A stretch of DNA of 50,338 bases from Paracoccaceae bacterium (GCA_026982515.1 JALSGY010000424.1:1-50338), one strand, 5' to 3'; counted from the stretch's first letter, positions 9,875 through 41,595 are shown. Made by a program: numbers and translations. Notes: generated by a model not told the origin, from the sequence alone.

Positions 9875-9942
9875 ACCCGGGCCTGAAAAAGTTGCGAAAA
9901 CCCCTTGTTCTTCCGTGGCTTGCCTGAACCACGCCAATCCCG

Positions 9943-9990: not shown

Positions 9991-10119
9991 TCCCCAAACC
10001 CCGCTTTCCCCCCGAAAAGGCGGGAATTTGCTTGGAAAACACAGGGTGTGTTCGACGCTTCTTCCCATGTCCCACCTTTTGTGCTACATCGCTCAAAACG
10101 CATAACATCGAGGGTCGGC

Positions 10120-11589: not shown

Positions 11590-11610
11590 GCGTTTCGCGT
11601 GCGAAACATC
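11590..11610. promoter_or_regulatory. parS-like palindrome copy 1 (core GTTTCGCGTGCGAAAC, 11592..11607)
   Basis: Near-perfect 16-bp palindrome in the parA-parB intergenic region. Its reverse complement shares 19 nt (gatgtttcgcacgcgaaac) with the copy at 12721. Confidence 0.5.
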
Positions 11611-11679
11611 GGGGCGCGCGCGGGGGCAGGGTTCTGTTTACCCCGGCGTCGCAGGATGGGGCCGCAGGAGGTGCAAGAC

Positions 11680-12814: not shown

Positions 12815-15800
12815 TCAGGCGGCCGCTTCGGCAATCAGCAGATCATTCGAATAGATCTCGGTCGGCAGATCGTCGCTGAGGGTCTCATGGCCCGCAGTCA
12901 GCGCCTCCCAGAGCGCCGCCGCCTCGGGTGAGTCCATGTCGGTCTCTGTGCCAACCGTGGACAGCGAGGCCGCGCCGCTGCCGCTGCCGGGGGCCGTAAG
13001 CTGCACGGTCAGCGTGTCAGTGGCATAGTCGATGACCAGATGCGCATCCTGGTTGCCGGACAGGCCAATGAGGCGGATGTCGCTGAGTTCGCCGACCAGT
13101 TCGTCGACCGAGATCAGCTCATATGTTCCGGCGGCAAGGCCCGCGACATCAAGTTCGAGCGTGCCCAGCCCCAGGTTGACGCCCGATGCGATGTCGGGGT
13201 TGTCGCCCATGGCGCCGGTGCGGAATTCCTCGATGGTCGAGAAGCCGCCGGCATCGGCGTCGAAGGACAGGGTGCCGCCGTCGTCCAGCCGCAGCACGCC
13301 GGTATCGCCCTGCGTGCCGTCAAAGCCGACGCTGGCCGCGCTGCCGTCGATGTTCAGGCTGGCGCCGGCTTCGACATCGTATGTGGCCCCGTCGGTTGCC
13401 AGCACGGTCTGGCCGTCGCTGATGTTCATCTGGACATTGCCGTCGACGGTGCCGGTGTTCACGAAGCGCCCGCCGTCGACGTCGATGGTCAGCCGGTCCT
13501 GGTCGCTGTAGCCGTTCATCCAGACCTGGCCGACATTGGAAATATCGAAGTGGCCACCATTGGCCCCGGCCTGGGTCACGCCGTCGATGTTCAGCCGGCC
13601 ATGGGTCACGTTCAGCTCTCCGCCCGATCCGAAATCGAAATCCGCGATCGTGGTGGTGCCGCCGTAGTTGACGATGTTGCCGCCCAGATCGACACTATCG
13701 CCGGCAACAGAGCCGGGCAGATCGTCGCTCGACCAGTTGATCTGATTGTCCCAGCGGATGCCGTCACCCAGATCATTGGGAATGAAACGCAGGGTTTCCG
13801 GGCTGAGCCGGTCGCCCGGGCTGAGGCCGAACCCGACCTGAAAGAAGTCGATGATCAGGTCGGCATCGACATAGTCATCCAGCGAGCCGTCGGCCTGGGC
13901 ACGCAGGAAAGCGGCCAGTTCCGGGATGCCGGCATTCGGGTCGCCCAGAAGCTGCTGGGTGAAGATCTGAATGGTCGTGGCATTGAGCACCGAGGTATCG
14001 AGACCGTCGACATTCTGATCGTCCAGGTTGGGGTCATGGCCCCATTGGGCCTGTCCGCTGCCGACCCAGTTGTAGATGATCGTGTCGTTGTAGAACGGGT
14101 TTTCCTGGTTGCTCAGAGGATAGTTGGAACCCGACTTGGCTGCGATTTCCGCCGGGTTGTTCGGATCGGCAAGGTGGGCGATGATGTTGTCCAGCAGGGT
14201 GGAATCCATCCCGGCATTGCGCACGCCCTCGGCCAGGTAGCCGATGCCGGCTGCCGTTTCCTTGTATCCGGCCGAAGTGATCAGGTTGTCGGAGAACTGG
14301 GTGTAGTTCCCGACAAAACCGGTGCCCTCGAACTCACCTCCGGTGAAGTCCACCGCGGCGTTGTTGTCGAGGAAGACGTTGCTTTCGATAAGGCCGCCGC
14401 TGCGGATGTGGGCGCCGAACATCGAGCCCTGCATCGTGATGTTGTCGCGGAAGGTGACGTCGGTGTTGTCCCAGTCGATGTAGAAGTTGTGATTGAACAT
14501 CGTCGGGGACTGGCCGCCGCTGGTGGACTGGTTGAACTGGTAGTCCGGGGCCCAGCCATTCTGATCGAAAAGCGAGCCTTCGACCAGCACACTGTCACTG
14601 TTGCCGATAAAGCCGCCGGAGGTCATGAGACCGCCACCCGGCCAGGAGCCGGCGCCATCGGGATGCACTGTCCGGAAGACATCGATGATCGAAGAGTCAT
14701 GCAGGGTGAAGCCCTGGGCATTCTGGACGACAAGCCCCATCACGTTGTCATGGGTGACGGTGGTGTTGGTGATGTCCACATTGTCCAGCATCAGGTTCGT
14801 GCCGCTGAGCGCATAGACGCCCCCGGTCACGAAAAGGTCGCTGACGACGATATTTTCGTTTCCGCCGCCCCAGGGCGACAGCGAGATGCTGGTGTTCAGA
14901 ACCGGTTTTGCGCCATCGCCGTAAGCCGTGATATGGACCGGATGCATCGGGTCTTCGCCCATTGTTCCGTCGTCAATGACCGCGCCGAGGTTGTCGTATT
15001 CAAAGCCGCGCTCGAACAGCAGCCAGTCGGAAGACGGAGCGTTCCCGCTGCCGGTCATCCCGTACCAGAGCCGCATCCCGGCCTCGCTGTCGAGCGCCAT
15101 GTCGGGTACGCTGCCATAGTCCGGGTGGGCCTGGAGCCAGTCGGCCGTGATCTGGTTGACGTCCAGCCCCTCGAGGGCCGCGATGTCATTCAGGCTCAGG
15201 GCGTCGTTGCTGCCCGAGATGTAGACTTCGCGGTGATTGTCGCCGGCCTCGACGATAACGTCGCCGTTTGCATCGGTTTCCAGCATGTAGACATTGCCTT
15301 GAGCCCAGCCGGCACCCTGGGTCGGCTGCAGGACGTCGACCGTATTGCCAAAGGATTGCGTGGTGCCGTCCTGGTAGGTGACCTCATAGCTGAAGCTCAG
15401 CTGGCCGCTGTAGTTTTCACCGCTCATGACCAGGGCCAGCGTGTTGTCGGGGTTGACCGAAAGGTGGCCGTATGCCGGCTGCCCGGTGATGCGCACCGAG
15501 TCTATGGAGTCGGCGTTGTCGAGGCGCAGGGTGGTTACCCGGCCGCCGGCGACATCGACACCATTTGACAGCTGTGTCGCCGCGACGCCGCCACCGTTGC
15601 TGGTATCGGTCAGCTGTTCCGGCGCAGTCGGGTCGGGGTTGCTTGGCGCCGGCGGGGTGGGGTCGGTCGGCGGGGTGGGATCGGTCGGTTGCGGATCGGG
15701 TGAACCGGTGTTGGGGTTCGGGGCCGGATCCGGCGTCGGATCGGTCGGCGCAGGATCGGGATCTGGCGCGGGGTCCACCGGGTCGGTCGGCTGCCATGGC

Positions 15801-15988
15801 TCTTCCGGATCGGGATCGACCGGGACAATGACCTCCGTGGGCCCCACGGATGGCTGCGGGGGCTCCTTGTCATTGTTGAAGGCCGTTGGTGCCGGATCTT
15901 CGGAACTGGCTTCGGAGGCCGAATTTCGGCCGAAGGCAGTCCCCAGGACAAGCACTCCGAGCAGAGAAAAGAGCAAGTAGATCATCAT
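12815..15988 (-). CDS. Large secreted or anchored surface protein: N-terminal signal/anchor, P/T/D-rich stalk, Ig/cadherin-like segment, right-handed beta-helix region, repetitive C-terminal beta-rich region
   Basis: The N-terminus MMIYLLFSLLGVLVLGTAFG is hydrophobic. Residues ~56-125 are a Pro/Thr/Asp low-complexity stalk. The centre has beta-helix-like repeats (NIVVSDLFVTGG, NLMLDNVDITNT, FRDNITMQGSMFGAHIRSGGLIESNVFLDNNA). The C-terminal third is Gly/Asp/Val-rich repeats. Confidence 0.75.
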   Translation of the reverse strand: MMIYLLFSLLGVLVLGTAFGRNSASEASSEDPAPTAFNNDKEPPQPSVGPTEVIVPVDPDPEEPWQPTDPVDPAPDPDPAPTDPTPDPAPNPNTGSPDPQPTDPTPPTDPTPPAPSNPDPTAPEQLTDTSNGGGVAATQLSNGVDVAGGRVTTLRLDNADSIDSVRITGQPAYGHLSVNPDNTLALVMSGENYSGQLSFSYEVTYQDGTTQSFGNTVDVLQPTQGAGWAQGNVYMLETDANGDVIVEAGDNHREVYISGSNDALSLNDIAALEGLDVNQITADWLQAHPDYGSVPDMALDSEAGMRLWYGMTGSGNAPSSDWLLFERGFEYDNLGAVIDDGTMGEDPMHPVHITAYGDGAKPVLNTSISLSPWGGGNENIVVSDLFVTGGVYALSGTNLMLDNVDITNTTVTHDNVMGLVVQNAQGFTLHDSSIIDVFRTVHPDGAGSWPGGGLMTSGGFIGNSDSVLVEGSLFDQNGWAPDYQFNQSTSGGQSPTMFNHNFYIDWDNTDVTFRDNITMQGSMFGAHIRSGGLIESNVFLDNNAAVDFTGGEFEGTGFVGNYTQFSDNLITSAGYKETAAGIGYLAEGVRNAGMDSTLLDNIIAHLADPNNPAEIAAKSGSNYPLSNQENPFYNDTIIYNWVGSGQAQWGHDPNLDDQNVDGLDTSVLNATTIQIFTQQLLGDPNAGIPELAAFLRAQADGSLDDYVDADLIIDFFQVGFGLSPGDRLSPETLRFIPNDLGDGIRWDNQINWSSDDLPGSVAGDSVDLGGNIVNYGGTTTIADFDFGSGGELNVTHGRLNIDGVTQAGANGGHFDISNVGQVWMNGYSDQDRLTIDVDGGRFVNTGTVDGNVQMNISDGQTVLATDGATYDVEAGASLNIDGSAASVGFDGTQGDTGVLRLDDGGTLSFDADAGGFSTIEEFRTGAMGDNPDIASGVNLGLGTLELDVAGLAAGTYELISVDELVGELSDIRLIGLSGNQDAHLVIDYATDTLTVQLTAPGSGSGAASLSTVGTETDMDSPEAAALWEALTAGHETLSDDLPTEIYSNDLLIAEAAA
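15614..15823 (-). repeat. Coding low-complexity repeat (PTDP/PDPAP-type stalk)
   Basis: Encodes PVDPDPEEPWQPTDPVDPAPDPDPAPTDPTPDPAPNPNTGSPDPQPTDPTPPTDPTPPAPSNPDPTAPE. The DNA shows reiterated gggtcggtcgg-like units. Confidence 0.8.
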
Positions 15989-16480: not shown

Positions 16481-17419
16481 TCAGGGAGAGACGCCCGTCT
16501 GCCTGTTCTGCGTGACAACGTCCCAGACGATCTGTTGCATCAGGCGGGCGGCGTCCGGCCCGGGGTCGCGGGCGGGGCTGCCGTCGGCCCGGGTCAGCCT
16601 GTGGGGCAGGCCGCGCGGATCCTGTCGATAAAGCACCGCATAATGGGTCAGGGCCACCAGATAGGCGCCGAAATCGTTGAAATGGATATTGTCGGAGAAC
16701 AGGTCGGCCCGGGTTCCGATCGGGCCGACCCCGCCGCGCTTTTCCACGTCGCGCACGAACCGGGCCATGACCTGGCCTGCCGGGATCAGGTAGATCGGCT
16801 GCGGCGCCTCTTCATAATTCAGGGCGCGGCGCAGGATTTCGCCTTCCCAGTAGCGCTCCAGATCCCGGTCAATCCGTTCCAGCCAGCCCTCGGGGTCATC
16901 CAGTTCATGCCATGTTTCGTATAAATAGACACTGATTTCAGGGTTGGCGGCGCGGGCAGCAGAGGCCCATTCATGCAGATAGCGTGCCGGGTCGAAATAC
17001 TTGATGGCGTCGCGGATCTCGACGCCTTCGGTCAGCACCAGGGCGTCATAGTCGCCCGAGTTCACGGCCTCATGCGCGTCGCGGTAGCGGGGATGGTCGT
17101 TTTCGGTCTCGAACCCGTTGATCGGCTCATCCGGCTCCCAGTGGGCTTTCAGGAAGGTTCCCCAGCCAAGCTGGCTTTCATAGGCATGCCCGGCCCCGGC
17201 CAGCTGCGCCAGCATCGCGGGCATGTCGCGCCCGACCAGGCTGTGGCCCAGGTGAAACACGCGCAGAGGCCTGTCGGGGGGCGATGCAGGCTGGGCGTAG
17301 AGCGCATCGAAGGCCGCCTTGTCCAGCGGCTCGGGCAGGCTGCAGCGCGACACCATTCCGCAGGCGCCCAGCAACAGCAGCAGCAGGGCCGAACCCTGGC
17401 GTTTCAGGCGGGCAATCAT
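16481..17419 (-). CDS. Secreted protein or lipoprotein, possibly SGNH/GDSL-like hydrolase (esterase or acyl-handling)
   Basis: The internal ATG at 17419 gives MIARLKRQGSALLLLLLGAC, a signal peptide with a lipobox-like LGAC. VFHLGHSLVGRDM resembles SGNH block I and DNIHFNDFGAY resembles the DxxH block V. The functional call is weak. Confidence 0.5.
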   Translation of the reverse strand: MIARLKRQGSALLLLLLGACGMVSRCSLPEPLDKAAFDALYAQPASPPDRPLRVFHLGHSLVGRDMPAMLAQLAGAGHAYESQLGWGTFLKAHWEPDEPINGFETENDHPRYRDAHEAVNSGDYDALVLTEGVEIRDAIKYFDPARYLHEWASAARAANPEISVYLYETWHELDDPEGWLERIDRDLERYWEGEILRRALNYEEAPQPIYLIPAGQVMARFVRDVEKRGGVGPIGTRADLFSDNIHFNDFGAYLVALTHYAVLYRQDPRGLPHRLTRADGSPARDPGPDAARLMQQIVWDVVTQNRQTGVSP

Positions 17420-17502
17420 CGGGTTTCGTTTCTTGTGTCCATCCTGCCAATATAAGTTGAATTTGCCAGGGCAAAAAGGCATATCGGTCCGGTTGGATGT
17501 GA

Positions 17503-18759
17503 ATGGTCAGGGTGTGGATGATGGGCTCCGAGGGCAGGCAAGGTGGGGACGGCAAGCGTCTCCTGGTCTATGCGCCGGTTCCCCTGTATCAATCCGACAA
17601 CGGATTTCTTCTGGAAGATCAGGCCTGTAACGGCATCAGGCTCTGGGCCGAGAATTTTGACAAGGTGTCGATCATGATGCCTGTCGAAGCCGGCCCGGCC
17701 CCTGCCAACTGGGTTCCGATCGAGGCGATCGGCCCCAACCTTGAGCGCGTCGAGATCGTGCCGCTGCCGACGGCCTATCGGCCCGACCAGTTCCTGCGCC
17801 ATCTTCGCGCCACGCGCCGCATCATCCGCGCGCAGATCGACAAGGCCGACTACCTGTCGTTTTCGATTGGCGGTCTGTTCGGCGACTGGGGGTCGGTGTC
17901 GTGTTACGAGGCCTGGCGGAAGGGGCGCCCCTATGCCGTCTGGACCGACCGGGTTGAATCCGAGGTGATCCGGCGCACGGCGCATGCCGGCCACTGGCGC
18001 AAGCGGCTGCGCGCGCGCCTGACGCACCGGCCAATGTTCCAGCTTGAAAAATTCCTGATCCGGCGCGCCGCCCTGGGGTTGTTTCATGGCCGGGAAACCT
18101 TTGACACCTATGCGCCGTTTTGCCAGAGACCCGAGGTCGTTCATGACATTCACCTGAAGAAATCGGAACATATCCCGCCCGACAGGCTGGCGGCCAAGCG
18201 CTCGGCGGTGACCGACGGGCCGTTGAAAATACTCTATCTCGGGCGGGCCGACCCGATGAAAGGTCCGCTGGACTGGGTCGAGGTGCTGGAAACGGTCGCC
18301 CGGGCCGGGGTGGCATTCGAGGCCTGCTGGCTGGGCGAGGGGCCCGAACTGGCGGCCATGCAGGCGCGGGTCAGGGCGGCGGGCCTGCAAGATCATGTCG
18401 AATTCCCCGGTTTTGTCAGGGATCGGCAGGCGGTTCTGGACCGGCTGCGTGCGGCACATGTCTTTCTGTTCTGCCACAAGACACCGGAATCGCCGCGCTG
18501 CCTGATCGAAGCGCTGGTGTCGGGCACGCCGATCATCGGGTATGACGGCCCGTTTGCCCGGGATCTGATTGCCGATGGCCAGGGCGGTCTGCTGAGCCCT
18601 GTCGGCGACACCGGCACGCTGGCGGGCAATGTGGCCGGCCTTGGGCGTGACCGGGACAGGCTGGCCGAGATGATCGGAGCGGCGGCGCGGGCGGGATCGA
18701 TTTTTGACGATGAGGGCGTTTTTGCGCACCGCAGCGAGCTTATCCGTCGCTATCTGTAA
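17503..18759 (+). CDS. GT4/GT1-family glycosyltransferase
   Basis: The C-terminal half is GT-B-like: ILYLGRADPMKGPLDWVEVL, GEGPELAAMQARV and FLFCHKTPESPRCLIEALVSGTPIIGYD (an EX7E-like motif). Confidence 0.75.
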   Translation: MVRVWMMGSEGRQGGDGKRLLVYAPVPLYQSDNGFLLEDQACNGIRLWAENFDKVSIMMPVEAGPAPANWVPIEAIGPNLERVEIVPLPTAYRPDQFLRHLRATRRIIRAQIDKADYLSFSIGGLFGDWGSVSCYEAWRKGRPYAVWTDRVESEVIRRTAHAGHWRKRLRARLTHRPMFQLEKFLIRRAALGLFHGRETFDTYAPFCQRPEVVHDIHLKKSEHIPPDRLAAKRSAVTDGPLKILYLGRADPMKGPLDWVEVLETVARAGVAFEACWLGEGPELAAMQARVRAAGLQDHVEFPGFVRDRQAVLDRLRAAHVFLFCHKTPESPRCLIEALVSGTPIIGYDGPFARDLIADGQGGLLSPVGDTGTLAGNVAGLGRDRDRLAEMIGAAARAGSIFDDEGVFAHRSELIRRYL

Positions 18760-18780: not shown

Positions 18781-19455
18781 CTAATCAGGCAAAATCAGGC
18801 CGCAGACAAGCAGGTTTCCGACAATTTGCCACCGTCCGTCCGGGGGTGCATGACCGGGAAAGCGGGCAAGCCCGCCGGGAAAGGCGATCGAGAACCCGCC
18901 GGTGCTGGTGGATGCCGTGATCTCGACCGCGTCAAATCCGATCATCTCGCCGGTCAGCGGATACCGGGCCTTGTAGACGGCTTCCTTGGCGCTGAAGATC
19001 AGCTTGGCCAGCAGGGCGCGGTCGCGGGCGGGCTGGCGGTCAAGCCAGGCGCGTTCGGAGCGCGTGCAGATCGTGCCTTCCAGTTCCGCTTCCAGGGGCG
19101 TGGCGTCTTCGATGTCGATGCCGATCGCGCGCAGGTGCGTGCGGGGGGCCACGGCGGCGATGCAGGCGGTGGAACAATGGGCGATGGACCCCACCAGCCC
19201 TTCGGGCCAGACGGGCGCGCGGTCGGGGCCCTGCGGCACCGGGGCGGGGGGCAGGCCGATGTCGGCCATTGCAAGGCGCGCGGCCTGGCGCCCGGCGGCA
19301 AACTCCAGCCGCCGCCGGGGCACCGCGCGCGTCACTGCGGCGTCTTCCCCGGGATACAGCGCGCCGGCCGCAGCCGTCGGATCGGTGGCCGCGACCCCGA
19401 CACCTGGCCCCAGAAGCCCGCGCAGGGCTTCCGTGAGCGCTGCGAGATCGCTCAT
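18781..19455 (-). CDS. 4'-phosphopantetheinyl transferase (EntD/Sfp type)
   Basis: Contains FAAGRQAARLAM, GSIAHCSTACIAAV, IGIDIE and KLIFSAKEAVYKA. Its ATG overlaps the upstream NRPS-like stop codon (ATGA at 19452..19455). Confidence 0.85.
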   Translation of the reverse strand: MSDLAALTEALRGLLGPGVGVAATDPTAAAGALYPGEDAAVTRAVPRRRLEFAAGRQAARLAMADIGLPPAPVPQGPDRAPVWPEGLVGSIAHCSTACIAAVAPRTHLRAIGIDIEDATPLEAELEGTICTRSERAWLDRQPARDRALLAKLIFSAKEAVYKARYPLTGEMIGFDAVEITASTSTGGFSIAFPGGLARFPGHAPPDGRWQIVGNLLVCGLILPD

Positions 19456-22400
19456 GCGCTGCTGGACTGGCGGCGCGCGCGCATTTCGCGCCGCCGTTTC
19501 ATGGCTTCGGCGCGGGCTTCGGCTTTTTCGCCGGAAACAGTGTCTGTTTCAGGGGTTTTCGCTGGTTTTGCGCCCCCGGAAAGCTTGTCTTCCACGGTGC
19601 GGGCCAGCCCATCCAGCGTCGGAAAACGGAAGATGTCGGTGATGGAAAGCCGGTCGGCGCCCAGCTCCTTGCGAATCTCGCGATGCGCCTGCACGGCCAG
19701 CAGCGAATGGCCACCGAGATCGAAGAAGTTGTCCTTTGCGCCGATCCCGGACACCCCGAGGATGCGTGACCAGATATCCGCCACCTGCTGCATGACGGTG
19801 CCAACAGGGGCGGTGTCTTCTGTTGCCGAAGACGGCTTGCCGGCCGCGGCAGCAGCCATCGGGGCGGGCAGGGCGTTGCGGTCGACCTTCTTGTTGGGCG
19901 TCAGCGGAAAGGCGTCAAGCGTGACGAAGCGCGCCGGCAGCATGTGGGCTGGCAGGCGCGCGCCAAGATGGGCCTTCAGGTCGGCTTCGGGCACCGGGGT
20001 CTCGGCCAGCGTGTAGGCGACAAGCTGGCGCAGCCCCGGCACATCCTCGCGCAGCATCACCACCGACTGGCGCACGCCCGGATGGGTATCGAGCGCGCTT
20101 TCGATCTCGCCCAGTTCGATCCGGTAGCCGTGCAGCTTGACCTGGTCGTCGGCGCGGCCGAGAAAATCGAGCTGCCCGTCCGCGCGCCAGCGCACCAGAT
20201 CGCCGGTGCGATACAGGCGTGCGCCCTGGCTGTCGGTGAACGGGTCGTCGACAAAGCGTTCATCGGTCAGGTCGGGCCGTTGCCAGTAGCCGCGCGCCAC
20301 CCCGGCCCCGCCGATGTAAAGCTCACCCGCCATGCCAAGCGGCACCGGCGCGCGGTTTTCGTCCAGCACATAAACGCGGGTATTGGCGATCGGGCGTCCG
20401 ATCGGCGCGACGGTGTCGGTCGGGACAACCGGGCCGGTGGTCGACCAGATCGTGGTTTCGGTCGGGCCATACATGTTTTCGACATGGCCCCCGGCAAGCC
20501 CCAGCAGTTCGCGCACGAGCCCCCCCGGCAGCGCCTCGCCGCCGATCATCAGGTGGCGGACATGCGACAGCGCGTGGCGCGCCTCGTCGTTCATCACCAG
20601 CATCTGCGCCATCGAGGGCGTGCACTGCATATGGGTGACCGCGTGGCGCTGGATCTGGGCCGCGATCGAAAAGTCATCCTCGGCCGGCCCGGTTTCCTGG
20701 TTGGTGCGGCGCACCACCTCGGCCAGCGGCTTGAGGCCCTCGAGCACGGTGTCGCGCGCGATGCCGTAGTCGATCAGGCAGGCGATTTCGTCGACACCGA
20801 TGCGCTTGAGCTGTTCGGTGCGCGCCAGGCAGTCGTCAACCGTGCCAAACAGGCCCGAATCCTCGAAATAGCGCAGGAAGGCAAACTCGAGGATGGCGTC
20901 GAGCTCTTCCTCGCTCAGGATGCCGAGGTCGATATCGAAGGCGTTGTTCACGCCCTTGGGTTTCTTGAAGGCCGGGAAGACCCAGGCAAACTGCTTGATC
21001 AGCCCGGCGGCCGAGCGCAGGTAGTCCTTCATCGGCCCGCGGGCGATTTCGCGCACCGCTTCGCGGTCGGTCCCGACGAAAGTGTGCAGCATCAGCGTGA
21101 CGGTGAAGTCATCCGGGTCGTGGCCGGCCTCGCGCAGGGCGGCGTGGTAGATCCTGATCTTTTCGCCGACCTCGTCGATGCTCTGGCCAAGCAGGTGGGT
21201 CAGCACGTTGGCGCCGATCTCTCCGGCTTCGCGCCAGGTGTCGGGATTGCCGGCCGTGGTGATCCAGATCGGCAACTCTTTCGAGACCGGCCGGGGCTGG
21301 GTGAGCACCGCGTGCGGTGTGCCGTCGGCGGTCGGAAATTCCACCTCTTCGCCACGCCACAGGCGGCGCAGATCGTCGATTGCGCGATACATGGCGGGCT
21401 TGTTTTCGGGCGGCGTGTTTTCCGGGCGCAGCACGAAGTCATGCGGCTGCCAGCCCGAGGCGATGCCCAGCCCGGCCCGCCCGTTGGTCAGGTTGTCGAT
21501 CACCGCCCAGTCTTCGGCGATGCGCGCCGGGTGGTGCAGCGGGGCGACGCAGCTGCCGGCGCGCACCGCGATATTGCGCGTGATGGCCGCCACCGCCGCG
21601 CCGGTGACCGAGGGGTTGGGATAGGGGCCGCCGAACGCGTGGAAGTGCCGTTCCGGCGTCCAGACCGCGCAAAAGCCGTTCTGGTCGGCGAACCGTGCGC
21701 CATCGAGCAGCATCTTGTACTTGTCGCGCCCCTGGCCGTCGTCGTTGCCCCAGTAAAACAGGCTGAATTCCATGCCGCGCCCGGTGATGGCGTGCACCCC
21801 GGCGTTGTCGCCGGCCACCAGTGCGCGGTTTTCGTCGCTGCTGAGCACGACCTTGAAGCCGCGCGCAAGCGTCCAGAACAGCTCGAGCACCGAAATGTCG
21901 AACGACAGGCTGGTCAGGGCCAGCCAGACGCCCGGCGGGTCATGGGCGATGCGTTCATCCATGCCGGTGAAGAAATTGGCGACGTTGCGATGCTCGACCA
22001 TCACGCCCTTGGGCTTGCCGGTGGAGCCCGAGGTATAGATCAGGTAGGCCAGATCTTCGCCGGTCACGCCGCTTTGCGGGTTGATCGCCGGGGCCGAGGC
22101 GATCTGTGGCGCATCGTCAAGGCTGAGCAGTTGCGCGCCCGTTTCCGGCAGTGCATGCGCCAGGCCGGTATTGGTCACGATAACCCGGGCCCCGCTGTCT
22201 TCGGCATAAAGCGCGGTGCGGTCGGCCGGATAGGCCGGGTCCATCGGCAGGTAGGCGCCGCCGGCCTTGAGGATCGCCAGCGCCGCCACCAGCAGGTCGG
22301 TCGAGCGCGGCAGGTGCAGCCCGACGACGACCCCGGGCCTGACCCCCATGTCCTGCAGCACATGGGCGATGCGGTTGGCGCGCGCGTTCAGGGCGTCATA

Positions 22401-24080
22401 GCTCAGGCTTTCGCCTTCGAACGCCAGCGCCTCGGCCTCGGGGTTGCGGGCGACCTGCTGTTCGAAGAATTCATGAATGCAGGTGTCTGCCGGAAAGTCG
22501 CGCGCGGTGTCGTTCCAGTCTTCCAGCAGCATCCGGCGTTCGGCGTCGGGCAGGATCGGCAGGGCGCCGGGCGCCGTGTCGGGGGCCTGCACCGCCGCCT
22601 CCAGAAGATGCGTCAGCCGCGCCGCCAGGCGTTCAAGCTCGGCTGCATCGGGGCCGGTATTTGTGCTGATCAGTGTCGCTTTTGCGCCCTGAACCGCCAG
22701 GGTCAGCGCGGTGCCCGGCAGGCATCCGGCGCCCGCATCGCGCGACAGGCCGATGGTGGGCAGAACCGCCTTTTCGGCCAGGCGGGCGGGCAGGTCGCAG
22801 GCGAAACCGCCGTTGTCGAGCGCCTGGGCCAACTGTGCCGACAGCGCATCCCGGCTGGCGGCGAAACTGCTTTCGAGCGCGCCATGCACCGGAACCCAGG
22901 GGCAGACGTAATCGGGCGCATCGGGCAGGTGACAGGCCATGTCCAGCCCGTCCGTCCCTGCCATCCTGGCAAGCAGGATGGCGAGGGCGGCCCAGGCATC
23001 TTCGGCGCCGGCCCCTTCGGGCAGGGCAAAGCCGTGGCGCGGCGCATCGCCGTCACCGTTGCTGCCGAGCCGCGGCAGATCAAGCGGGGCGACCTGCTCG
23101 AGCCGGTCGCGCCAGAACGGTTCGGCACGCAGCAAAGGGGCAAGAACTGCATCGATCCGGGCCGCGTCTTCGGTGTCCGGGCTGGGCAGAACGTCGCCGG
23201 TCTGCGCCACATCGGAGGCCGGGACCGGACGGCCGAAACAGTCACTGATACGGCTTAAAACGATGTCATTCGTGCCGGTTGCCACGGTCAGGCTGTCGGC
23301 CGTGGCGGCCGTGACAGTGCCCGGCGCCTTGCCCGAAGCGGTCGGCGCGGGCACAGCGCTGTGCACCAGCCGGATTTCCCCGCCGGCCTCGATCTTGGGG
23401 CAAAGCAGCGGGTTGCGATAGTCGCCATGGTCAAGCGCACGCACCAGCCCCGCGAGGGTCTCGGCCGATTTCGTGAAATCGAGCCGTCCGCCGGCCTCGG
23501 GCCGGGCGTCGCGGCCGAAGTAGCTGCGCTGGTCCAGATCCTGGGGCGTGGCGGCCGGCGTGTCGCTGGCCAGTTCGGCCATCACCTGGCCAAAGCTGTC
23601 GATGGCGGCGCTGTAGCATTTCGTGTTGAGCGTGAGGGCGGTTTCGTCAGGGGCGATGTCAAACCGGCTCTGGGCGATGATGTCGCCTTCATCGACGCCG
23701 CCCGAAATCAGGTGCCAGGAGATGCCGTGGGTTTTCTCGCCATTGATCAGCGCCCAGACCGGCGCATTGAGACCGGCATAGCGCGGCAGCGGGCCATCGT
23801 GAAAATTGACCGCGCCGCGGGCGGCCATGTCAAGCGCGTCCTGCGGGATCAGGTCGAGATTGGCGATGGACAGGAGCCAGTCGAAATCATGGGGTTTCAG
23901 CCGTGCGGCCAGATCGGCGCCGGGGGCGAGCACCGGCAGGCCGCGGGATTTTGCCCAGTCCTGCACTTCGGCATTGCGGGTCACGACAGCGCGGATCGGA
24001 TTGTCCGCCTCCAGCAGCATTTCACCACATTGAATGACAAGGGATTCGTTGCCGATGAGGACGGAACTGAAACCGGGCAT
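19452..24080 (-). CDS. NRPS-like module: formyltransferase-like domain, degenerate condensation remnant, adenylation domain interrupted by a luciferase-like monooxygenase, PCP
   Basis: Fmt-like residues ~1-300 (VNFHDGPLPRYAG). C-to-A linker LPILPDAERRMLLEDWNDT. A motifs LAYLIYTSGSTGKPKG, SFDISVLELF, NMYGPTETT, GELYIGGAGVARGY, YRTGDLVRW, GRADDQVKLHGYRIELGEIE and PNKKVDR. An LLM insert of ~350 aa sits between A4 and A5 (MEFSLFYWGND...GIASGWQPHDF...). PCP motif FFDLGGHSL, with the Ser codon at 19704..19706. Confidence 0.9.
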   Translation of the reverse strand: MPGFSSVLIGNESLVIQCGEMLLEADNPIRAVVTRNAEVQDWAKSRGLPVLAPGADLAARLKPHDFDWLLSIANLDLIPQDALDMAARGAVNFHDGPLPRYAGLNAPVWALINGEKTHGISWHLISGGVDEGDIIAQSRFDIAPDETALTLNTKCYSAAIDSFGQVMAELASDTPAATPQDLDQRSYFGRDARPEAGGRLDFTKSAETLAGLVRALDHGDYRNPLLCPKIEAGGEIRLVHSAVPAPTASGKAPGTVTAATADSLTVATGTNDIVLSRISDCFGRPVPASDVAQTGDVLPSPDTEDAARIDAVLAPLLRAEPFWRDRLEQVAPLDLPRLGSNGDGDAPRHGFALPEGAGAEDAWAALAILLARMAGTDGLDMACHLPDAPDYVCPWVPVHGALESSFAASRDALSAQLAQALDNGGFACDLPARLAEKAVLPTIGLSRDAGAGCLPGTALTLAVQGAKATLISTNTGPDAAELERLAARLTHLLEAAVQAPDTAPGALPILPDAERRMLLEDWNDTARDFPADTCIHEFFEQQVARNPEAEALAFEGESLSYDALNARANRIAHVLQDMGVRPGVVVGLHLPRSTDLLVAALAILKAGGAYLPMDPAYPADRTALYAEDSGARVIVTNTGLAHALPETGAQLLSLDDAPQIASAPAINPQSGVTGEDLAYLIYTSGSTGKPKGVMVEHRNVANFFTGMDERIAHDPPGVWLALTSLSFDISVLELFWTLARGFKVVLSSDENRALVAGDNAGVHAITGRGMEFSLFYWGNDDGQGRDKYKMLLDGARFADQNGFCAVWTPERHFHAFGGPYPNPSVTGAAVAAITRNIAVRAGSCVAPLHHPARIAEDWAVIDNLTNGRAGLGIASGWQPHDFVLRPENTPPENKPAMYRAIDDLRRLWRGEEVEFPTADGTPHAVLTQPRPVSKELPIWITTAGNPDTWREAGEIGANVLTHLLGQSIDEVGEKIRIYHAALREAGHDPDDFTVTLMLHTFVGTDREAVREIARGPMKDYLRSAAGLIKQFAWVFPAFKKPKGVNNAFDIDLGILSEEELDAILEFAFLRYFEDSGLFGTVDDCLARTEQLKRIGVDEIACLIDYGIARDTVLEGLKPLAEVVRRTNQETGPAEDDFSIAAQIQRHAVTHMQCTPSMAQMLVMNDEARHALSHVRHLMIGGEALPGGLVRELLGLAGGHVENMYGPTETTIWSTTGPVVPTDTVAPIGRPIANTRVYVLDENRAPVPLGMAGELYIGGAGVARGYWQRPDLTDERFVDDPFTDSQGARLYRTGDLVRWRADGQLDFLGRADDQVKLHGYRIELGEIESALDTHPGVRQSVVMLREDVPGLRQLVAYTLAETPVPEADLKAHLGARLPAHMLPARFVTLDAFPLTPNKKVDRNALPAPMAAAAAGKPSSATEDTAPVGTVMQQVADIWSRILGVSGIGAKDNFFDLGGHSLLAVQAHREIRKELGADRLSITDIFRFPTLDGLARTVEDKLSGGAKPAKTPETDTVSGEKAEARAEAMKRRREMRARRQSSSA

Positions 24081-24083: not shown

Positions 24084-25112
24084 TTACTCTCCAGGTTGAG
24101 GGGGCAGAGGTCGGGCGTCGCGCTTCGCCGGTGAAAGGAGCCTGCGCCGCAGGGCGGCCAGATCGTGGCGCGCCATGGAGCGCAGGAATTGGGGGGACAC
24201 TTCGCGTTTCTTGCGGGTCAGCGTTGCACGCAGCCAGCACAGGCCGCCACCGGTCAGGTGGGCAAGCGTCGCGAGGCCGGCATAAAGGGCGCCGTGGTTC
24301 TTGGCGAAGTAGTGCCAGCGCGAGTCGTACCAGTAGTCGGGCACCCGCGACCAGGTTTTCATTCCGGTGGACACCGAACCGATATGGGTCACGACACTGT
24401 CGCGCAGAAAAATGATCTCGTGGCCAGCAAGGCGGACGCGGCGGCACAGGTCGGTTTCCTCGAAATAGAGAAAGAAGGTTTCATCGAACAGGCCCACCTC
24501 ATCGAGCACGCTCTGGCGCATCATCAGGCTGGCCCCGGCCAGCCAGTCGACAGACTGCCCGTCGCGCGGTGTTTCGATCGGCACCCGGTGGCGGGCCAGC
24601 AGGCGGCTGACCGGCCCGAAGCGGATCGCGCTTTCGAATTCGCTGAGGATCGAGGGGAAGCGGAAAGCCGAGGTGTGCGCCACCCCGTCCTCGCCGTGGA
24701 TGTAGCTGCCGGCGAAGGCGGTTTCGGGATGGGCAACCAGGTGGTTCAGCAAAACGCGGATCGCCTCCGGCTCGGGGAAGGCATCCGAGTTTTGCACATA
24801 AATGAAATCGGGGCGCGATCCGTCACTGAGTCCGGCCCGGATGCCGACGTTGTTGCCGGCCCCGAAGCCACCGTTGTGACCGGATTGCAGAAGGCGCACC
24901 CGGTCGTTCCTGTCCCAGCCCGCGTCCGCGATGTGATTGCGGATCGTTTCATCGGAACCGTCCCGGCTGTCGTTGTCGACGATGACGATTTCACCGGCGA
25001 TGCCGTCCATCGCCGCCAATGCGGCTTCGGTTGCGCGCAGGGTCATCGGCGCCGTGCGGTAGTTCAGGATGACGGTCAGAAGTGTTGGATCCGACGTGGT
25101 ACTGGTCTGCAT
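24084..25112 (-). CDS. Family-2 glycosyltransferase embedded between the PKS and NRPS-like genes
   Basis: ATG at 25110..25112 (MQTSTTSDPTLLTVILNYRT...IVIVDNDSRDGSDE...) lies 1 nt after the PKS stop. The longer track ORF (to 25187) would overlap the PKS. The stop is 3 nt before the NRPS-like start. Confidence 0.85.
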   Translation of the reverse strand: MQTSTTSDPTLLTVILNYRTAPMTLRATEAALAAMDGIAGEIVIVDNDSRDGSDETIRNHIADAGWDRNDRVRLLQSGHNGGFGAGNNVGIRAGLSDGSRPDFIYVQNSDAFPEPEAIRVLLNHLVAHPETAFAGSYIHGEDGVAHTSAFRFPSILSEFESAIRFGPVSRLLARHRVPIETPRDGQSVDWLAGASLMMRQSVLDEVGLFDETFFLYFEETDLCRRVRLAGHEIIFLRDSVVTHIGSVSTGMKTWSRVPDYWYDSRWHYFAKNHGALYAGLATLAHLTGGGLCWLRATLTRKKREVSPQFLRSMARHDLAALRRRLLSPAKRDARPLPPQPGE

Positions 25113-25113: not shown

Positions 25114-28100
25114 CTATTCTGCTGCCTTGATTGTTTTTGGTGGGATGCTGGTTTCGCCAGCCTCCCATGCCCGTTCTGCCGCTTCAAGCCGGTGTTTCAT
25201 TCGTGCGGCGAGAACCCGCACATTGGGTTCAAGCACCATGGAATCGTGGTCGCCCGGCACTTCGAATACCTCGATGGCATGGGCCCATCTGGTCCAGCCG
25301 TTGTCCGGAAGAAGGTAGTGGCGATGCTTGTCGACAAGCCGCCCCGGCGCCACTTCCCACTGGCCGATCTGGGGCGGGCGGATCAGGGCAAGCGGCCCGG
25401 ACCAGGGCATGACCTTGTAGGCCCCCACGCTTTCGAGGAAAGCATCCTGGATGGCCGCATTGTGGAATTCATGCGCTGCCTCGGTTTCTTCGTCATGGCC
25501 CTGGCGTTTGCCCAGTTCCCAGGCGATGCGGTTCCTTGCCCAGGTGGTCAGATAGCCAAGGCCCTGACGGCGCAGGTTGATCCAGTTGATCATGATGCGG
25601 TCGCGCCGCGACAGCGGCGGGCGCACCGGCAGGGGGGTGTCGAGCATGATCAGCTCCGACACGGTTTCGCCGGCGGCCGTCAGCTGTTGGGCAATCTCGT
25701 AGGCAATGATGCCGCCGCCGGAAAACCCGCCCAGCATGTAGGGGCCATGCGGCCGGACCTGGCGCATTTCGGCGATATAGTCGCGCGCCGCCTCGACCAC
25801 CGAGCGGTGCGGCTCCTCATCGCCGTAAAGCCCGCGCGCCTGCAGCCCGTAAAACGGCCGGTCGGCGCCCAGAAGATGCGCAAGATGGCGCAGGTTCAGC
25901 ACGTTGCCGAACATGCCGGCCACCAGGAAGAACGGGGTTTTCGGCCCCCCTTCGCCGGCATGCATCGGCACCAGGTGGGTGAAGCGGCGTTCGGTCCTGG
26001 CCACAGCCGGGGCCGGGGCGCCGTCTTCTTCGTCGGTGGCCACACCGCGCGCGGCGATCAGCTCGGCGCATTTGCGGATCGTCGGGGCTTCGAACAGCAC
26101 CGAAATCGGAAAGTCGACCTGCCAGGTCTTGCGGATCTGTGCAAACAGCCGCACCGCGATCAGGGAATGTCCGCCAAGGTCGAAGAAACTGTCTTCGACG
26201 CCGACCTGATCGACCCCGAGCAGGTCCTGCCAGAAGCCGGCCAGCCGGGATTCGATCGCATTTTCCGGGGCAACGTAGTCGGCATCGAGCTCGGGGCGCT
26301 GGAACTTCTGCTCGCTGCCCTGGTTGTCGGCCACGCTTTCGCCGGCCTGGGCGGCCAGCCCGGCGAGATCGAGCGACGACACGATCACCTGGGGCAGATC
26401 GGTGCTCAGGGCGCGCAGGAACAGGTCAGCCCCCTCGGCCGGGCGAATACCCTGGGTCAGGTTGTGGCGCAGGCGCTCTTCGGCGGGCGACAGCGGGCGC
26501 GCGGCCTCGTTGTCGGGCAGGGTGGCGACAGGGTTGTCGGCCGGGGCGGCCGCGAATTGCGCCGCGCTTTCCAGGCGGCGGATCGAAAACCCGCGGATCT
26601 CGACGCAGACGGTGCCGTCGGGGGCCGCGATGGTGACATCGAAACTTGCGGTTTCGGCGCCGGCCTCGTTTTCGCCGCTGTTGCGCACCCAGCTGACGAC
26701 CTCGGCCGGCAGGGGGCGGAAGACCCGGACCGAGCGGTAGGAAACCGGCACCCACAGGTGGGTCGGGCGATAGCCGGCGATCAGCTCCATCGCCCAGCCG
26801 GTGGCGATATCCATCAGCCCGGGGTGCAGCAGGCAGCCGGTGTCATTCCCGGCCCCGGGCAGGGCAAGCCGGGCCAGGCCCTCGCCCTGACCCAGGGCGG
26901 TTTCACGCAGCACATGCCACTGGGCGCCGAAGTTCAGCTGTGCTTCCTGGGGCGCGCTCAGCCATTGGCCCGGCGGCGCGGTGACCGGAGCGCCGCAGCG
27001 CGCGGCGATGGCCGCGGGGTCGATCGGGTCGGGGGGCGTCTGCGGCAGCAGCGAAAGACTGGCCTGGGCGTTCTGTTCGCGGTCCGCGCCGGCGCCGCTT
27101 TCAACGCTCAGGTCATAGCCGGTGTCGCTGCGTGAAAGCGTCAGGCGGATGTCACGCTCTTGTCCGTCTTCCACGGCCAGCGGGCGCAGGAAATAGAGGT
27201 CGCGGATCTCGAATGTCTGTGGCTCGCCCTGTGCGCGCAGGGCCTCGGCGGCCAGTTCGATATACCCGGTGCCCGGCAACAGCGCGTCGCCCGCGCGGGT
27301 CCGGTGCTGGTCGAGAAACCAGCGCCCGTCCGCCCGCCAGCGCGCCGTGAACAGCCGGTTGCCGGCGCCGTCGAAGCTGGCGTCGTCCAGCATCGGCTCG
27401 CCCGCCGCCTCGACCGGCGGGGGCGGGGTGGACCCGGTGCGCACCTGCATGGCATCGGCGGCCATGCCGACATCGGCCCAGATGCCCCAGTCGATGGCCA
27501 GAACCCGGGTCTTGCCGCCGGCGCGCGCCCTGGCGTAGGCGTTGAGATATTCGTTGGCCGCGACATAGTCGACCTGCCCCGGCGGGGCGGTGACGGTGGA
27601 GGTCGAGGAAAACAGCACCAGCCAGTCGAGCGCGCCATCGGGGAAGAGCTCATCGAGCACCTGGGTGCCGTGGATCTTGGGGGCGAAGACATCTTCGATC
27701 CCGGTCATCGACTTGGTCATGATCAGCCCGTCTTCGATCAGCCCGGCGGCATGGATCACGCCATTGACCGGCCCCCAGCGCCCCTCGATCTCGGCGCGGG
27801 CGGCCCGCATGTCCTCGACATTGCTGACATCGGCGGCAAGACACATGACCTGCCCGCCGGCCTCTTCCAGCGCCTGCACCGCCCGGATGCGCCGCGCCAG
27901 GCTGTCGCCGGGGGCGGTATTGCGCAGGATCTGCTCCCATTTGTCCCGGTCGGGCAGGGCGTTGCGCGACAAGAGCACGATACGCGCCGAGACCTTGCGG
28001 ATCAGGGTTTCGGCCAGGGTCAGCCCGATGCCGCCGAACCCGCCGGTGATCAGGTAGACGCCTTCTTCGCGCAGCGGTGGCACCAGGGTGTCCGGGGCGG

Positions 28101-31100
28101 CGATTTCCTGTTGCCGCCAGCCCAGTTCGAACCGCTTGTCGCCGCGCAGGGCCACGGTGGCGGTGGCCGGCGGGGCGAGCAGATCTTCGAGCAGCCGTTC
28201 GGCCAGCGCGGCCATCTGCGGATCGGGGCCGGTGCGTTTGCGGCGCGCGGGCTCCTGCGGCAGCTCCAGGTCGATCAGCGAACAGCTGAAGCCCGGAAAC
28301 TCGCGCGGGATGACCCGCGCCGGTCCGGCGATCGTGGCCTTTTCCGGATAGGCCAGCCCCTCATCGCGCACCTGTTGCGCCCCGGTGGTCAGCACGCTCA
28401 GGTGCAGCGGCATGGCCAACCCCTCGTCGCCGATGGCCTGGGCCAGAAACAGCAGGCTGTAAAACCCCTGTTCGAGATTGCGGTGGAAAAAGCTGCTGCC
28501 GGGGCGGAAGGTTTCCTTGCGGGTGGCCAGCCAGCCGTGGACGATCCGGCTCGGGGCCATGTCGCGTTCCACGAGGTCGCGGATCAGCGCGTCATAGCTT
28601 TCGCGCCCGCGCTCGGGGGCGATGATGTAACCGTCGTCGCCCATGCGCGCGAAAGTGTCGCCGGCGCGCACGGTGATCACCGGGTGCCCGGCCGCGCGCA
28701 GCCGTTCGGTGATGGCCCCGGTCAGCCCGGCGTCATCGGCAAAGACCAGCCAGGTTTCGCGCGGGGCCTCTGACAGGTCACCGCTTGTGTCGATGTCGCA
28801 GGCGGCATAGGTCGGGGTCCAGGCCGGGCGATAGCCCCAGCGCGACAGGTCATCCTCGCGCATCAGCCAGCGATTGTCGGTTTCGGCGGGTTTGCCCGGC
28901 TCGATGAAATAGGGCGCACGCTGGAAGGCGTAGCCGGGCAGCGGCACCCGCAGGCGCCGCGCGTCGCCCCAGTATTGTGCCCAGTCAAAGCGCCCCCCCA
29001 TGGCCCAGAGCCGCCCGAGCATGGCCAGGAAATAGGCATCATCGCCGATTTCGTCTTTCGGGTGGCGCAGGCTGGACATCACCTGGTTGGCGGTGGCATC
29101 GCCATGCTGGCCGGTCAGCGCGGCCAGCGCCTTGCCGGGGCCGACCTCGAGGAAGATGCGCCCGGGGGTCTGTGCCAGTGTCGCGATACAGTCGGCGAAA
29201 TGCACGGTGCCGCGCAGGTGGCCGACCCAGTAGTCGGGGTCGGTGGCTTCGGCCTCGGTGATGAACGCGCCGCTGCGGTTCGAGGTGAAGGGGATGCGCG
29301 GGGCGTGCAGCTCGATCGAGCGCAGATAGTCGCCGAAATCCTTCAGGATCGGTTCGAGCATGCGCGAATGGGCGGCAATGTCGATCGGGATGCGCTGGCA
29401 GTCGATGTCACGTTCTTTCAGCACCGCTTCCAGCGCGTCCAGCGCATCCTGGGCGCCGGTGGCGACGCTCAGCCCCGGCGCGTTGACCGCCCCGAGGTCC
29501 AGGTCGTCGCCCAGCAGCGGCTTCAGGTCTTCGGCGGGCAGGGCCACCGACAGCATGCCGCCGGCAGGCACCGTATCAAACAGGCGACCGCGCAGGTGCA
29601 CCAGCCCGATGCAGTCTTCGAACGACATGACCCCGGCCACGCAGGCGGCGGTGTTTTCCCCCATCGAATGGCCGACCAGGGCTGCCGGGCTTACCCCCCA
29701 GCTCATCCACAGCTGCGCCAGCGCATATTCGACGATCATGATCAGCGGCAATTGCACCGACGGCTGCTTGAGCCGGTCTTCGGCCTCGGCCCTGGCGCCG
29801 GGTTCGGGCAGCCAGATTGCGCGGATGTCATAGTCGAGCTTCGGCTGCAGGATTTCCAGGCCGCGGTCCATCCATTCGGCAAAGACCGGCTCGGTCTCGT
29901 AGAGGTCGCGCGCCATGCCGGCATATTGCGCCCCGCCGCCGGGGAACATGAACACGACCTCCGGGTCGTCGCCGACCACCGTGTGGGTGAAAACGCGGCG
30001 CGGGTCGTTTTCCTCGAGCAGGCGGGCGGCTTCTTCGTGGGTCTCGGCCACGACGACGCGGCGCCTTTCGAATTCGCGCCGGCCTTCCTTCAGGGTCCAG
30101 GCAATGTCGGCCAGGGGCTGTTCGGGATGGGCGCGCAGATGGGCGGCCAGCCGGGCGGCGTTGCCGTCGAGCGCGCCCTTGCTGCGCCCCGAAATGCACA
30201 GCAGCTGGAACGGCCAGTCCGAGGCTTCGGAGGCGACCCGTTCGGGGGCTTCTTCCAGAACGGCATGGGCATTGGTGCCCCCGACCCCGAGCGAGTTCAC
30301 CCCGGCCCGGCGCGGCCCCTTGTGCGATTGCCAGTCGCTCAGCCGGTCGTTGACGCGAAACGGGCTGTGCGCGAAGTCGATTGCCGGGTTCGGCTTTTCG
30401 TAGCCGAGCGAGGGCGGGATCTGGCGCCTGTGCAGCGACAGCGCGGTCTTGATCAGGCTGGCAACCCCGGCCGCGGTGTCGAGATGGCCGATGTTGGTCT
30501 TGACCGAGCCAAGCCGGCAATAGCCGGTTTCATCGGTGGTTTCGCCAAACGCCTGGGTGAGGGCGGCCACCTCGATCGGGTCGCCCAGGTAGGTGCCGGT
30601 GCCGTGGCACTCGACATAGTCGATGGTGTCGGCCGGCGTGCCGGCCATGCTGAGCGCTTCGGAAATGGCGGCGGCCTGGCCGTCGACCGACGGGGCAAGA
30701 TAGCCGGCCTTGGCGGCGCCATCGTTGTTGACGGCGGTGCCCTTGATCACGGCCCAGATATGGTCGCCGTCGGCGATGGCATCGGCCAGCCGACGCAGCA
30801 CCACGACACCCGCGCCCGAGCCGAACACCGTGCCCTGGGCGCGGTGATCGAACGCGTGGCAATGGCCGTCGGGCGACAGCACTTCGCCTTCCTTGTAGAT
30901 ATAGCCGCGCCCCTGCGGCAGTTCGATTGTCACCCCGCCGGCCAGCGCGATGTCGCATTCGCCGGTCATCAGCGCCTGGGCCGCGTAATGGGTGGCCACC
31001 AGCGAGGTCGAACACGCGGTCTGCAGGTTGATGCTCGGGCCCTTGAGGTCAAGGATGTGGCTGGCCCGCGTCGACAGGAAGTCCTTGTCGTTGCCGGTGT

Positions 31101-32840: not shown

Positions 32841-32995
32841 CGGCAGCCAGGGCGGACAGTCGATGAATTGCAGCGCGTCGGGGCCATTGTTGCAACTTCG
32901 CGCCGACCGGGCGGATTCTCCGGTCAGGGGATGTAAATTCCCGCAGAACCCGTAAATAGTGTGGATGAATAGGAAAATTCATCAATAGGTGAAGA

Positions 32996-41591: not shown

Positions 41592-41595
41592 CAGG

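Follow-up and report, generated by a model that had tools for sequence, protein, structure and literature searches.

A 50,338-nt stretch of DNA from a Paracoccaceae bacterium (GCA_026982515.1 JALSGY010000424.1:1-50338, hereafter the window) encodes a 1542-aa nonribosomal peptide synthetase (NRPS), in which an N-terminal formyltransferase (Fmt) domain and the C-terminal lobe of a condensation (C) domain precede an adenylation (A) domain that is interrupted by a luciferase-like monooxygenase (LLM), followed by a peptidyl carrier protein (PCP) domain and a basic tail. Its sequence and gene order identify this open reading frame (ORF) as the NRPS component of the cluster described by Martens et al. 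2007, a known orphan family, carried here on what is most likely a plasmid. On balance, we think that the protein is an initiation module, which would load glycine, probably formylate and α-hydroxylate it, and hand it to the polyketide synthase (PKS) encoded in the same operon.

Domain architecture of the NRPS

The domains of the ORF are laid out as follows.

19452..24080, minus strand: NRPS ORF, 1542 aa, Fmt / C-domain C-terminal lobe / LLM-split A domain with glycine-type code / PCP / basic tail
23196..24080, minus strand: Fmt domain, aa 1-295, catalytic N-terminal subdomain and Formyl_trans_C subdomain (Pfam and AlphaFold, AF2)
22491..23195, minus strand: C-domain remnant, aa 296-530, C-terminal lobe and C-A linker, without HHxxxDG (AF2 and Foldseek)
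21771..22490, minus strand: N-terminal part of the A domain, aa 531-770, motifs A1-A4 including FDISVLE (D728, I729, L732)
20706..21770, minus strand: LLM domain, aa 771-1125, insert of the A domain between motifs A4 and A5 (TIGR04020)
19851..20705, minus strand: C-terminal part of the A domain, aa 1126-1410, motifs A5-A10 (Q1152, M1178, G1180, M1203, I1211, W1212, K1398)
19581..19796, minus strand: PCP, aa 1429-1500, with attachment Ser1459 within FDLGGHSLLA (Pfam PP-binding)
19455..19580, minus strand: Arg-rich C-terminal tail, aa 1501-1542, possible docking element (homologue consensus)

Pfam placed Formyl_trans_N at residues 56-156 (E 6.7e-17), Formyl_trans_C at 198-292, AMP-binding in two stretches, 539-752 and from ~1130 (E 1.3e-89), Bac_luciferase at 779-1097 (E 1.1e-48), AMP-binding_C at 1325-1398 and PP-binding at 1431-1495. 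With E-values of 1e-89 to 7e-17 and more than 2000 homologues, this architecture is not a chance result. The top Protein Data Bank (PDB) match of the A-PCP part was LgrA. Conservation was measured in an alignment of the query with 120 homologues, in which the attachment residue S1459 was unchanged in 120 of 120 and mean identity was 79% in the LLM, 67% in the A and PCP parts and 32% in the Fmt-to-A region. Homologues at 60-71% identity have the N-terminus MSxFSxVxIGNESL in common. Pfam revealed no thioesterase (TE) or reductase (R) domain in the ORF, as had been stated in an earlier reading made by a model from the sequence alone (the sequence-only reading); a TE is instead found on the operon PKS. 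The same reading had pointed to a basic tail, and the protein indeed terminates in 42 basic-tail residues. The Arg-rich tail recurs in homologues with the consensus AMSRRRxMRARR, and Arg-rich ends are also found in Aminobacter and Deinococcus relatives; it may serve as a docking element.

The LLM matched TIGR04020, the NCBIfam model of MupA/Atu3671 natural-product LLMs, at residues 772-1122 with 487 bits against a cut-off of 244.45, covering model positions 1-340 of 341. The limits that had been drawn by eye (aa 769-1125, nt 20706..21776) were therefore right, and Pfam, NCBIfam and the motif positions, with A4 (FDISVLE) at 727 and A5 (NMYGPTE) at 1202, agree that the LLM falls between A4 and A5, as in MtaG and MelG. 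This is the best-conserved domain of the protein, with 39% of columns invariant across the homologues, and it contains a conserved ERHFH motif. Such conservation indicates that the insert is not a decayed spacer, an outcome that the sequence-only reading had allowed for. The closest solved relative is the monooxygenase domain of PuwE from puwainaphycin biosynthesis (PDB 6KET), which aligned over nearly the whole domain with an E-value of 1.8e-101. Unlike the query LLM, the PuwE domain lies between PKS and NRPS modules, beside an aminotransferase domain, rather than within an A domain, and its substrate is a β-amino fatty acyl chain. α-Hydroxylation of a carrier-bound acyl chain has been assigned to the PuwE domain (PMC4219810), and an α-hydroxylation role to TIGR04020 domains in general (PMC8739492). 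We infer that the LLM is active, dependent on flavin mononucleotide (FMN) and the site of oxidation, where it would hydroxylate the α-carbon.

The specificity code of the split A domain was read by alignment with GrsA, whose sequence was checked against PDB 1AMU and was the same except at residue 2. When the whole protein was aligned by plain MAFFT with the LLM left in, nine of the ten code positions assigned by hand in the sequence-only reading were recovered, and E1098 appeared at position 278 (code DILEMGMIWK). This residue was rejected because it lies inside the LLM; the error arose because the ~350-aa insert disturbs the alignment. Once residues 772-1122 had been excised and the remainder aligned with GrsA by L-INS-i, Q1152 was restored at position 278, with MQCTPS paired to GrsA ITLPPT, and the code was DILQMGMIWK; the automated alignment thus gave no other code than the hand alignment and reproduced all ten of its residue numbers. 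Automated specificity calls on insert-bearing A domains can therefore misplace position 278. By the same procedure, 111 of the 120 homologues have DILQMGMIWK and 7 have DILQLGMIWK; the code residues are also kept in the Aminobacter and Deinococcus relatives. The textbook glycine code is DILQLGLIWK. A 2025 survey of A-domain signatures gives DILQLGMIWK as common to four glycine A domains with a monooxygenase (MOX) insert (PMC12283262). The query differs from this MOX-associated code by a single conservative change, L299M, so that the glycine-type code proposed in the sequence-only reading is nearer to it than to the textbook one. LgrA module 2 (Gly), taken as a further reference, has pocket residues unlike the DILQ type and gave no support either way. 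Core motifs A3, A5, A7, A8 and A10 are intact, and YRTGDL, GRADDQVKLHGYRIELGEIE and PNKKVDR are visible in the translated ORF. By its code the A domain is glycine-type, and it presumably activates glycine.

At the N-terminus, the Fmt-like domain recognized in the sequence-only reading is borne out by the Pfam matches and by an invariant triad. The query contains the motif VNFHDGPLPRYAG, and N92, H94 and D130, which did not vary in any of the 120 homologues, line up by motif with the catalytic Asn/His/Asp triad known from formyltransferases. For residues 1-540, an AlphaFold model (predicted local distance difference test, pLDDT, 92) gave Foldseek matches of the Fmt fold to the ArnA N-terminal formyltransferase, Met-tRNA formyltransferases and sugar N-formyltransferases, with E-values down to 7e-25. 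The best match in sequence was ArnA, the UDP-Ara4N formyltransferase (E 3.8e-22, residues 22-294), which resembles the query Fmt most in both sequence and fold, C-terminal subdomain included. By contrast with ArnA, the query has no ArnA dehydrogenase/decarboxylase domain by Pfam, and its Fmt is fused to an NRPS module. Like LgrA, the linear gramicidin synthetase whose formylation (F) domain heads an F-A-PCP module, the query carries an N-terminal Formyl_trans_N domain with the N/H/D triad ahead of A-PCP. It differs from LgrA in that its F domain is distant, ArnA-like and retains the Formyl_trans_C subdomain, and in that it has half a C domain between F and A, an LLM in the A domain and a PKS downstream.

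The ~235-aa region between Fmt and A is the least conserved of the protein, at 32% mean identity. With sequence methods, recognition was limited to the C-A linker and the final ~40 positions of the Condensation profile, at aa ~480-530, and Pfam on aa 266-542 gave a marginal Condensation match (E 0.31), so that structure prediction was needed to identify it. In an AlphaFold model of residues 295-540 (pLDDT 93), all 50 of the 50 Foldseek matches listed were C domains of NRPSs or the condensation-like X-domain (E 6e-10 to 3e-6, TMq 0.54-0.70), including those of Txo1, McyB and LgrA and the RzmA starter C domain. No HHxxxD motif was present anywhere in the 1542-aa protein. By this model, the remnant is the C-terminal lobe of a C domain whose catalytic N-terminal lobe has been replaced by Fmt, which agrees with the condensation remnant lacking HHxxxDG noted in the sequence-only reading. 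A metagenomic relative of 2000 aa (P0169) has a complete Condensation domain (aa 7-444) ahead of Fmt-A(LLM)-PCP, a layout that does not fit a simple replacement of the C domain by Fmt. On a Deinococcus actinosclerus plasmid (L083:11785-17108), Fmt is a stand-alone 304-aa protein whose gene lies just ahead of one encoding X-A(LLM)-PCP, with the PKS gene next in line; fusion of Fmt to the NRPS is thus not obligatory.

A known orphan cluster and its distribution

The NRPS gene lies among the following genes.

25114..31563, minus strand: type I PKS, 2149 aa, with ketosynthase (KS), acyltransferase (AT), ketoreductase (KR), dehydratase (DH), carrier and TE domains in the order KS-AT-KR-DH-carrier-TE (Pfam)
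24084..25112, minus strand: family 2 glycosyltransferase (GT2), likely start ATG at 25112, near the PKS stop (Pfam Glycos_transf_2, E 4e-14)
18781..19455, minus strand: Sfp-type 4'-phosphopantetheinyl transferase (PPTase), its start overlapping the NRPS stop (Pfam 4PPT_N and ACPS)
16481..17482, minus strand: predicted lipoprotein, 333 aa, LLGAC lipobox (LLLGAC), often the fifth operon gene

The PKS, GT2, NRPS and PPTase genes are all on the minus strand and close-packed, and their order, PKS-GT2-NRPS-PPTase, agrees with that of the published cluster (PMC5014874). As cited in PMC4337385 and PMC5014874, Martens et al. 2007 described a PKS/NRPS cluster of the Roseobacter lineage, which these citing papers list as a PKS, a glycosyl transferase, an NRPS and a PPTase; the window has the same four genes in the same order. 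The cluster was present in 28 of 57 sequenced Roseobacter genomes (PMC4337385), and a 2023 survey reported no meaningful MIBiG match for it. In the literature we found no paper naming its product, the biochemistry of the domain combination or the domain architecture of this NRPS. The statement of the sequence-only reading that no characterised module has this combination therefore holds for biochemistry but not for sequence, the cluster having been known since 2007.

The nearest database protein is only 71% identical to the query. The closest homologues, full-length and 60-71% identical, belong to Ruegeria, Tateyamaria, Sulfitobacter, Thalassovita, Yoonia and Nioella; orthologues at 55-71% identity also occur in Leisingera and Phaeobacter, and one from Erythrobacter is 55% identical. 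Compared with Roseobacter-group genomes as a whole, the NRPS shows 56-71% full-length identity. Plasmids or chromids of Aminobacter, Shinella, Rhizobium, Neorhizobium, Methylobacterium and Paracoccus, as well as a Deinococcus plasmid, carry further relatives that match over their full length at 45-55% identity. Screening one genome per GTDB species gave 395 stretches with a relative, and the best 80 of these 395, nearly all labelled as Rhodobacterales or Paracoccaceae genera, are the loci counted throughout. Homologues of GT2 and NRPS were found in all 80, of the PKS in 72 (covering at least half its length) and of the PPTase in 70, with median identities of 66% for the PKS, 61% for GT2 and 47% for the PPTase. 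In 14 mapped Rhodobacterales loci the order was PKS-GT2-NRPS-PPT, except that L018 had no PPTase match. A second search covered 1.84 billion 50%-identity cluster representatives; among the best 150, at least 79 were proteins of 1400-1700 aa with both Fmt and LLM, which indicates that the combination is common in sequence space.

A lipoprotein homologue was found in 49-50 of the 80 loci, and its gene followed the PPTase on the same strand in all mapped loci where it was found (14 mapped). In the window, a family 4 glycosyltransferase (GT4) gene (17503..18759) is inserted between the two. The lipoprotein had no Pfam, NCBIfam or PDB match; by eye, it contains GHSL and DNIH motifs recalling SGNH hydrolases. 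The operon GT2 has zero predicted membrane helices. It was considered as an ArnC homologue and dropped, as it has neither membrane helices nor an NCBIfam ArnC match, and a PDB sequence search with it returned nothing informative.

Starter or terminator

Relatives in which the unit lies upstream of other modules argue for a starter. Deinococcus and Methylobacterium have the NRPS gene ahead of the PKS gene, and the NRPS stop and PKS start overlap in Deinococcus; in another relative (P0140), the layout is Fmt-A(LLM)-PCP-C-A-PCP-TE. Since the unit stands ahead of a PKS in the former and of a C-A-PCP-TE module in the latter, it would be a starter module. In an Andreprevotia NRPS (P0149), Fmt is followed directly by an A domain without LLM and then by three C-A-PCP modules. 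For oxazolomycin and conglobatin, F-A-PCP loading modules that supply formylglycine to a PKS have been described. The operon PKS, which retains the motifs TACSTS/HGTGT/NIGH with the Cys/His/His residues in KS, GHSMG in AT, HxxxGxxxxP in DH, GGHSL in the carrier and GFSGG in TE, is presumed to accept the NRPS-bound starter and to be the site of release. Its carrier domain has the PCP-like GGHSL in place of the usual acyl carrier protein motif.

The opposite role would be that of MtaG and MelG, the C-A-MOX-A-T-TE termination modules of myxothiazol and melithiazol synthesis (T, thiolation), in which glycine is condensed and hydroxylated, the chain leaves as an amide and the TE frees a keto acid (PMC11411415). 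Applied to the query, an upstream acyl chain would be joined to glycine, hydroxylated by the LLM and released as a primary amide, and glyoxylate would be hydrolysed off. The A(LLM) unit, a glycine A domain interrupted between A4 and A5 by a TIGR04020-type LLM, and its code are of the MtaG/MelG kind, and large NRPSs with C-A(LLM) modules occur among the relatives. However, MtaG and MelG have a full C domain and a TE, whereas the query has only Fmt and the C-lobe, without the catalytic C-domain half, HHxxxDG or a TE of its own; the sole possible donor, the PKS, begins with a KS and ends with its own TE. Because the catalytic half of the C domain is absent and the only TE is on a KS-first PKS, release as a terminal amide does not fit. 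In addition, the N-terminal Fmt marks a chain start, and P0140 has the unit before a C-A-PCP-TE module. We therefore regard termination of this type as highly improbable: of the MtaG/MelG parallel drawn in the sequence-only reading, the glycine A domain with its LLM stands, and the terminal-amide logic does not.

In the initiation reading, the PPTase would prime both carrier domains, and the split A domain would activate glycine and load it onto Ser1459 of the PCP. Fmt, in place of the donor-side half of the C domain, would then N-formylate Gly-S-PCP with N10-formyl-tetrahydrofolate, and the embedded FMN-dependent LLM would hydroxylate the α-carbon of the tethered (formyl)glycyl thioester. The resulting N-formyl-α-hydroxyglycyl-S-PCP might persist or collapse to glyoxylyl-S-PCP and formamide. 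The PCP-bound product would pass, perhaps via the Arg-rich tail, to the KS of the KS-AT-KR-DH-carrier-TE synthase, which would extend it with malonate, reduce and dehydrate it before release by the TE. The product may finally enter a glycoconjugate, as suggested by the co-transcribed GT2 and the surrounding Wzx/Wzy-type genes.

If the collapse did take place, the formyl group would serve in a cryptic oxidative deamination: formamide would be lost and a nitrogen-free glyoxylyl (2-oxoacetyl) starter would prime the PKS. The same chemistry, from N-acyl-α-hydroxyglycine to amide and α-keto acid, has been proposed for MtaG/MelG, and since Fmt stands where the donor half of the C domain is missing, formyl would replace the upstream acyl chain. 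This variant is reached by inference only, however; N-acyl-α-hydroxyglycines can be stable enough to persist, and hydroxylation of free Gly-S-PCP, with no formyl group added first, is possible in principle. We consider the variant unlikely.

Several observations weigh against initiation with formylated glycine. The window has the PKS gene ahead of the NRPS gene, and the KS-AT-KR-DH order of the PKS resembles that of iterative synthases. A DH after the KR is known from polyunsaturated fatty acid- or enediyne-type iterative synthases. Because of this iterative-like order, the chain length is not predictable. The code differs from the textbook one by two Leu-to-Met changes and was read by alignment. 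The family members are known from their sequences; the product was uncharacterised in papers of 2015 and 2016 (PMC4337385, PMC5014874), and surveys of 2023 and 2024 list the NRPS-type I PKS (NRPS-T1PKS) hybrid without a product. The remaining points concern Fmt, which occurs as a separate protein in Deinococcus and scored E 4e-22 against ArnA/sugar N-formyltransferases and ~7e-6 (residues 64-158) against the F domain of LgrA, the sole solved NRPS F domain available for comparison. As Fmt is nearer to ArnA than to LgrA, its acceptor could be an amino sugar.

In that case Fmt would act on an amino sugar or nucleotide-sugar, like ArnA or WbkC, and the acyl unit made by A(LLM)-PCP and the PKS would be joined to it later. 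Besides ArnA and the sugar N-formyltransferases being its closest relatives in sequence and fold, and the free-standing Deinococcus gene, this alternative draws on the GT2 of the operon, on the location of the operon in Wzx/Wzy loci and on DegT-like, polysaccharide-deacetylase and PMT_2 family genes in the window. The last three, however, are not conserved beside the operon (0-2 of 80 loci). Moreover, at least 79 of the best 150 50%-identity representatives carry Fmt fused ahead of A-PCP, and in P0149 Fmt heads a multimodular NRPS that lacks the LLM, the position expected of a chain-initiating F domain. A sugar acceptor, the main rival of the initiation reading, seems to us distinctly unlikely.

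Plasmid and polysaccharide setting

Positions 1-127 of the window are identical to 50212-50338, and three genes for replication and partition are present.

8678..9937, minus strand: replication initiator protein A (RepA)
10048..11505: ParA-like gene
11599..12720: ParB-like gene, weak match below the Pfam cut-off

The identical ends and the RepA, ParA-like and weakly ParB-like genes make it most likely that the window represents an entire circular plasmid of ~50.2 kb. A 65%-identical RepA occurs together with the PKS/NRPS cluster on a Ruegeria plasmid (NZ_CP065364.1). The rest of the plasmid (793..8533 and 31965..49684) is an exosortase-type polysaccharide locus, so that, unlike the cluster of Martens et al. 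2007, the query copy lies within such a locus on what is probably a ~50 kb circular RepA-type plasmid. The genes assigned there, together with the GT4 gene next to the PPTase, are listed below.

793..2397: exosortase EpsH+DUF3485
2424..3326: UbiA-family protein
3364..4032, 17503..18759 and 35088..36308: GT4 glycosyltransferases
6429..7757: DegT-like protein
7625..8533: WecG/TagA glycosyltransferase
36199..37287: polysaccharide deacetylase
38935..39996: methyltransferase
40080..41591: Wzx
41596..42732: GT2
42572..44116: Wzy-like protein
46341..48392: AsnB-like amidotransferase
48425..49684: PMT_2 family protein

The Arn-like genes among these (DegT-like, deacetylase, PMT_2) were considered as operon members and dropped, since the flanking regions of nearly all related loci lack them. 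In the 80 loci, the 10 kb around the NRPS contained homologues of a second GT2 (47 loci), a WecG-type transferase (27), a Wzy-like protein (28), a GT4 (51), Wzx (47) and the 333-aa lipoprotein (50). The typical block order in related loci is GT2b-WecG-Wzy-PKS-GT2-NRPS-PPT-lipoprotein-...-GT4-Wzx, which indicates that in most relatives the four published genes usually belong to a larger conserved block. The Aminobacter and Deinococcus copies (L081 and L083) lie among O-antigen ligase family, export, flippase, CapK and UDP-glucose dehydrogenase genes. Because polysaccharide genes flank the operon across relatives, the setting suggests that its product is part of a glycoconjugate.

A fuller proposal, which we put forward tentatively and hold to be doubtful as a whole, is that Fmt and LLM act as a pair on PCP-bound glycine, that the N-formyl-α-hydroxyglycyl or glyoxylyl starter is extended by one PKS module, and that the product is built into a Wzx/Wzy-dependent surface polysaccharide or a glycolipid. 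If true, many marine Rhodobacterales, together with several Rhizobiales and even Deinococcus, would share a thiotemplated way of making a glycan substituent, and the lack of any reported free small molecule from the cluster would be accounted for. The Roseobacter group is dominant in many coastal and algal-associated communities. A domain-level model, with a formylated, α-oxidised glycine starter passed to a single PKS, makes the question of the orphan cluster experimentally specific, and the polysaccharide setting directs the search for the product to cell-surface glycoconjugates over metabolites of the culture supernatant.

Two further ORFs of the plasmid were noted. The first (12815..15988, minus strand) encodes 1057 aa, with a coding-like GC content at third codon positions (GC3) of 0.81, an N-terminal signal-like segment and a Pro/Thr/Asp-rich stretch; it had no Pfam or NCBIfam match, and a homologue with 56% identity occurs close to the cluster in a related locus (L014). 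The second (31965..32840, plus strand) encodes a 291-aa protein with no Pfam match that ends in VPLPAGFWLLLAGMGGFVLSGRMARR. By eye, this end looks like a VPLPA/PEP-CTERM sorting signal, in keeping with the exosortase encoded on the same plasmid.

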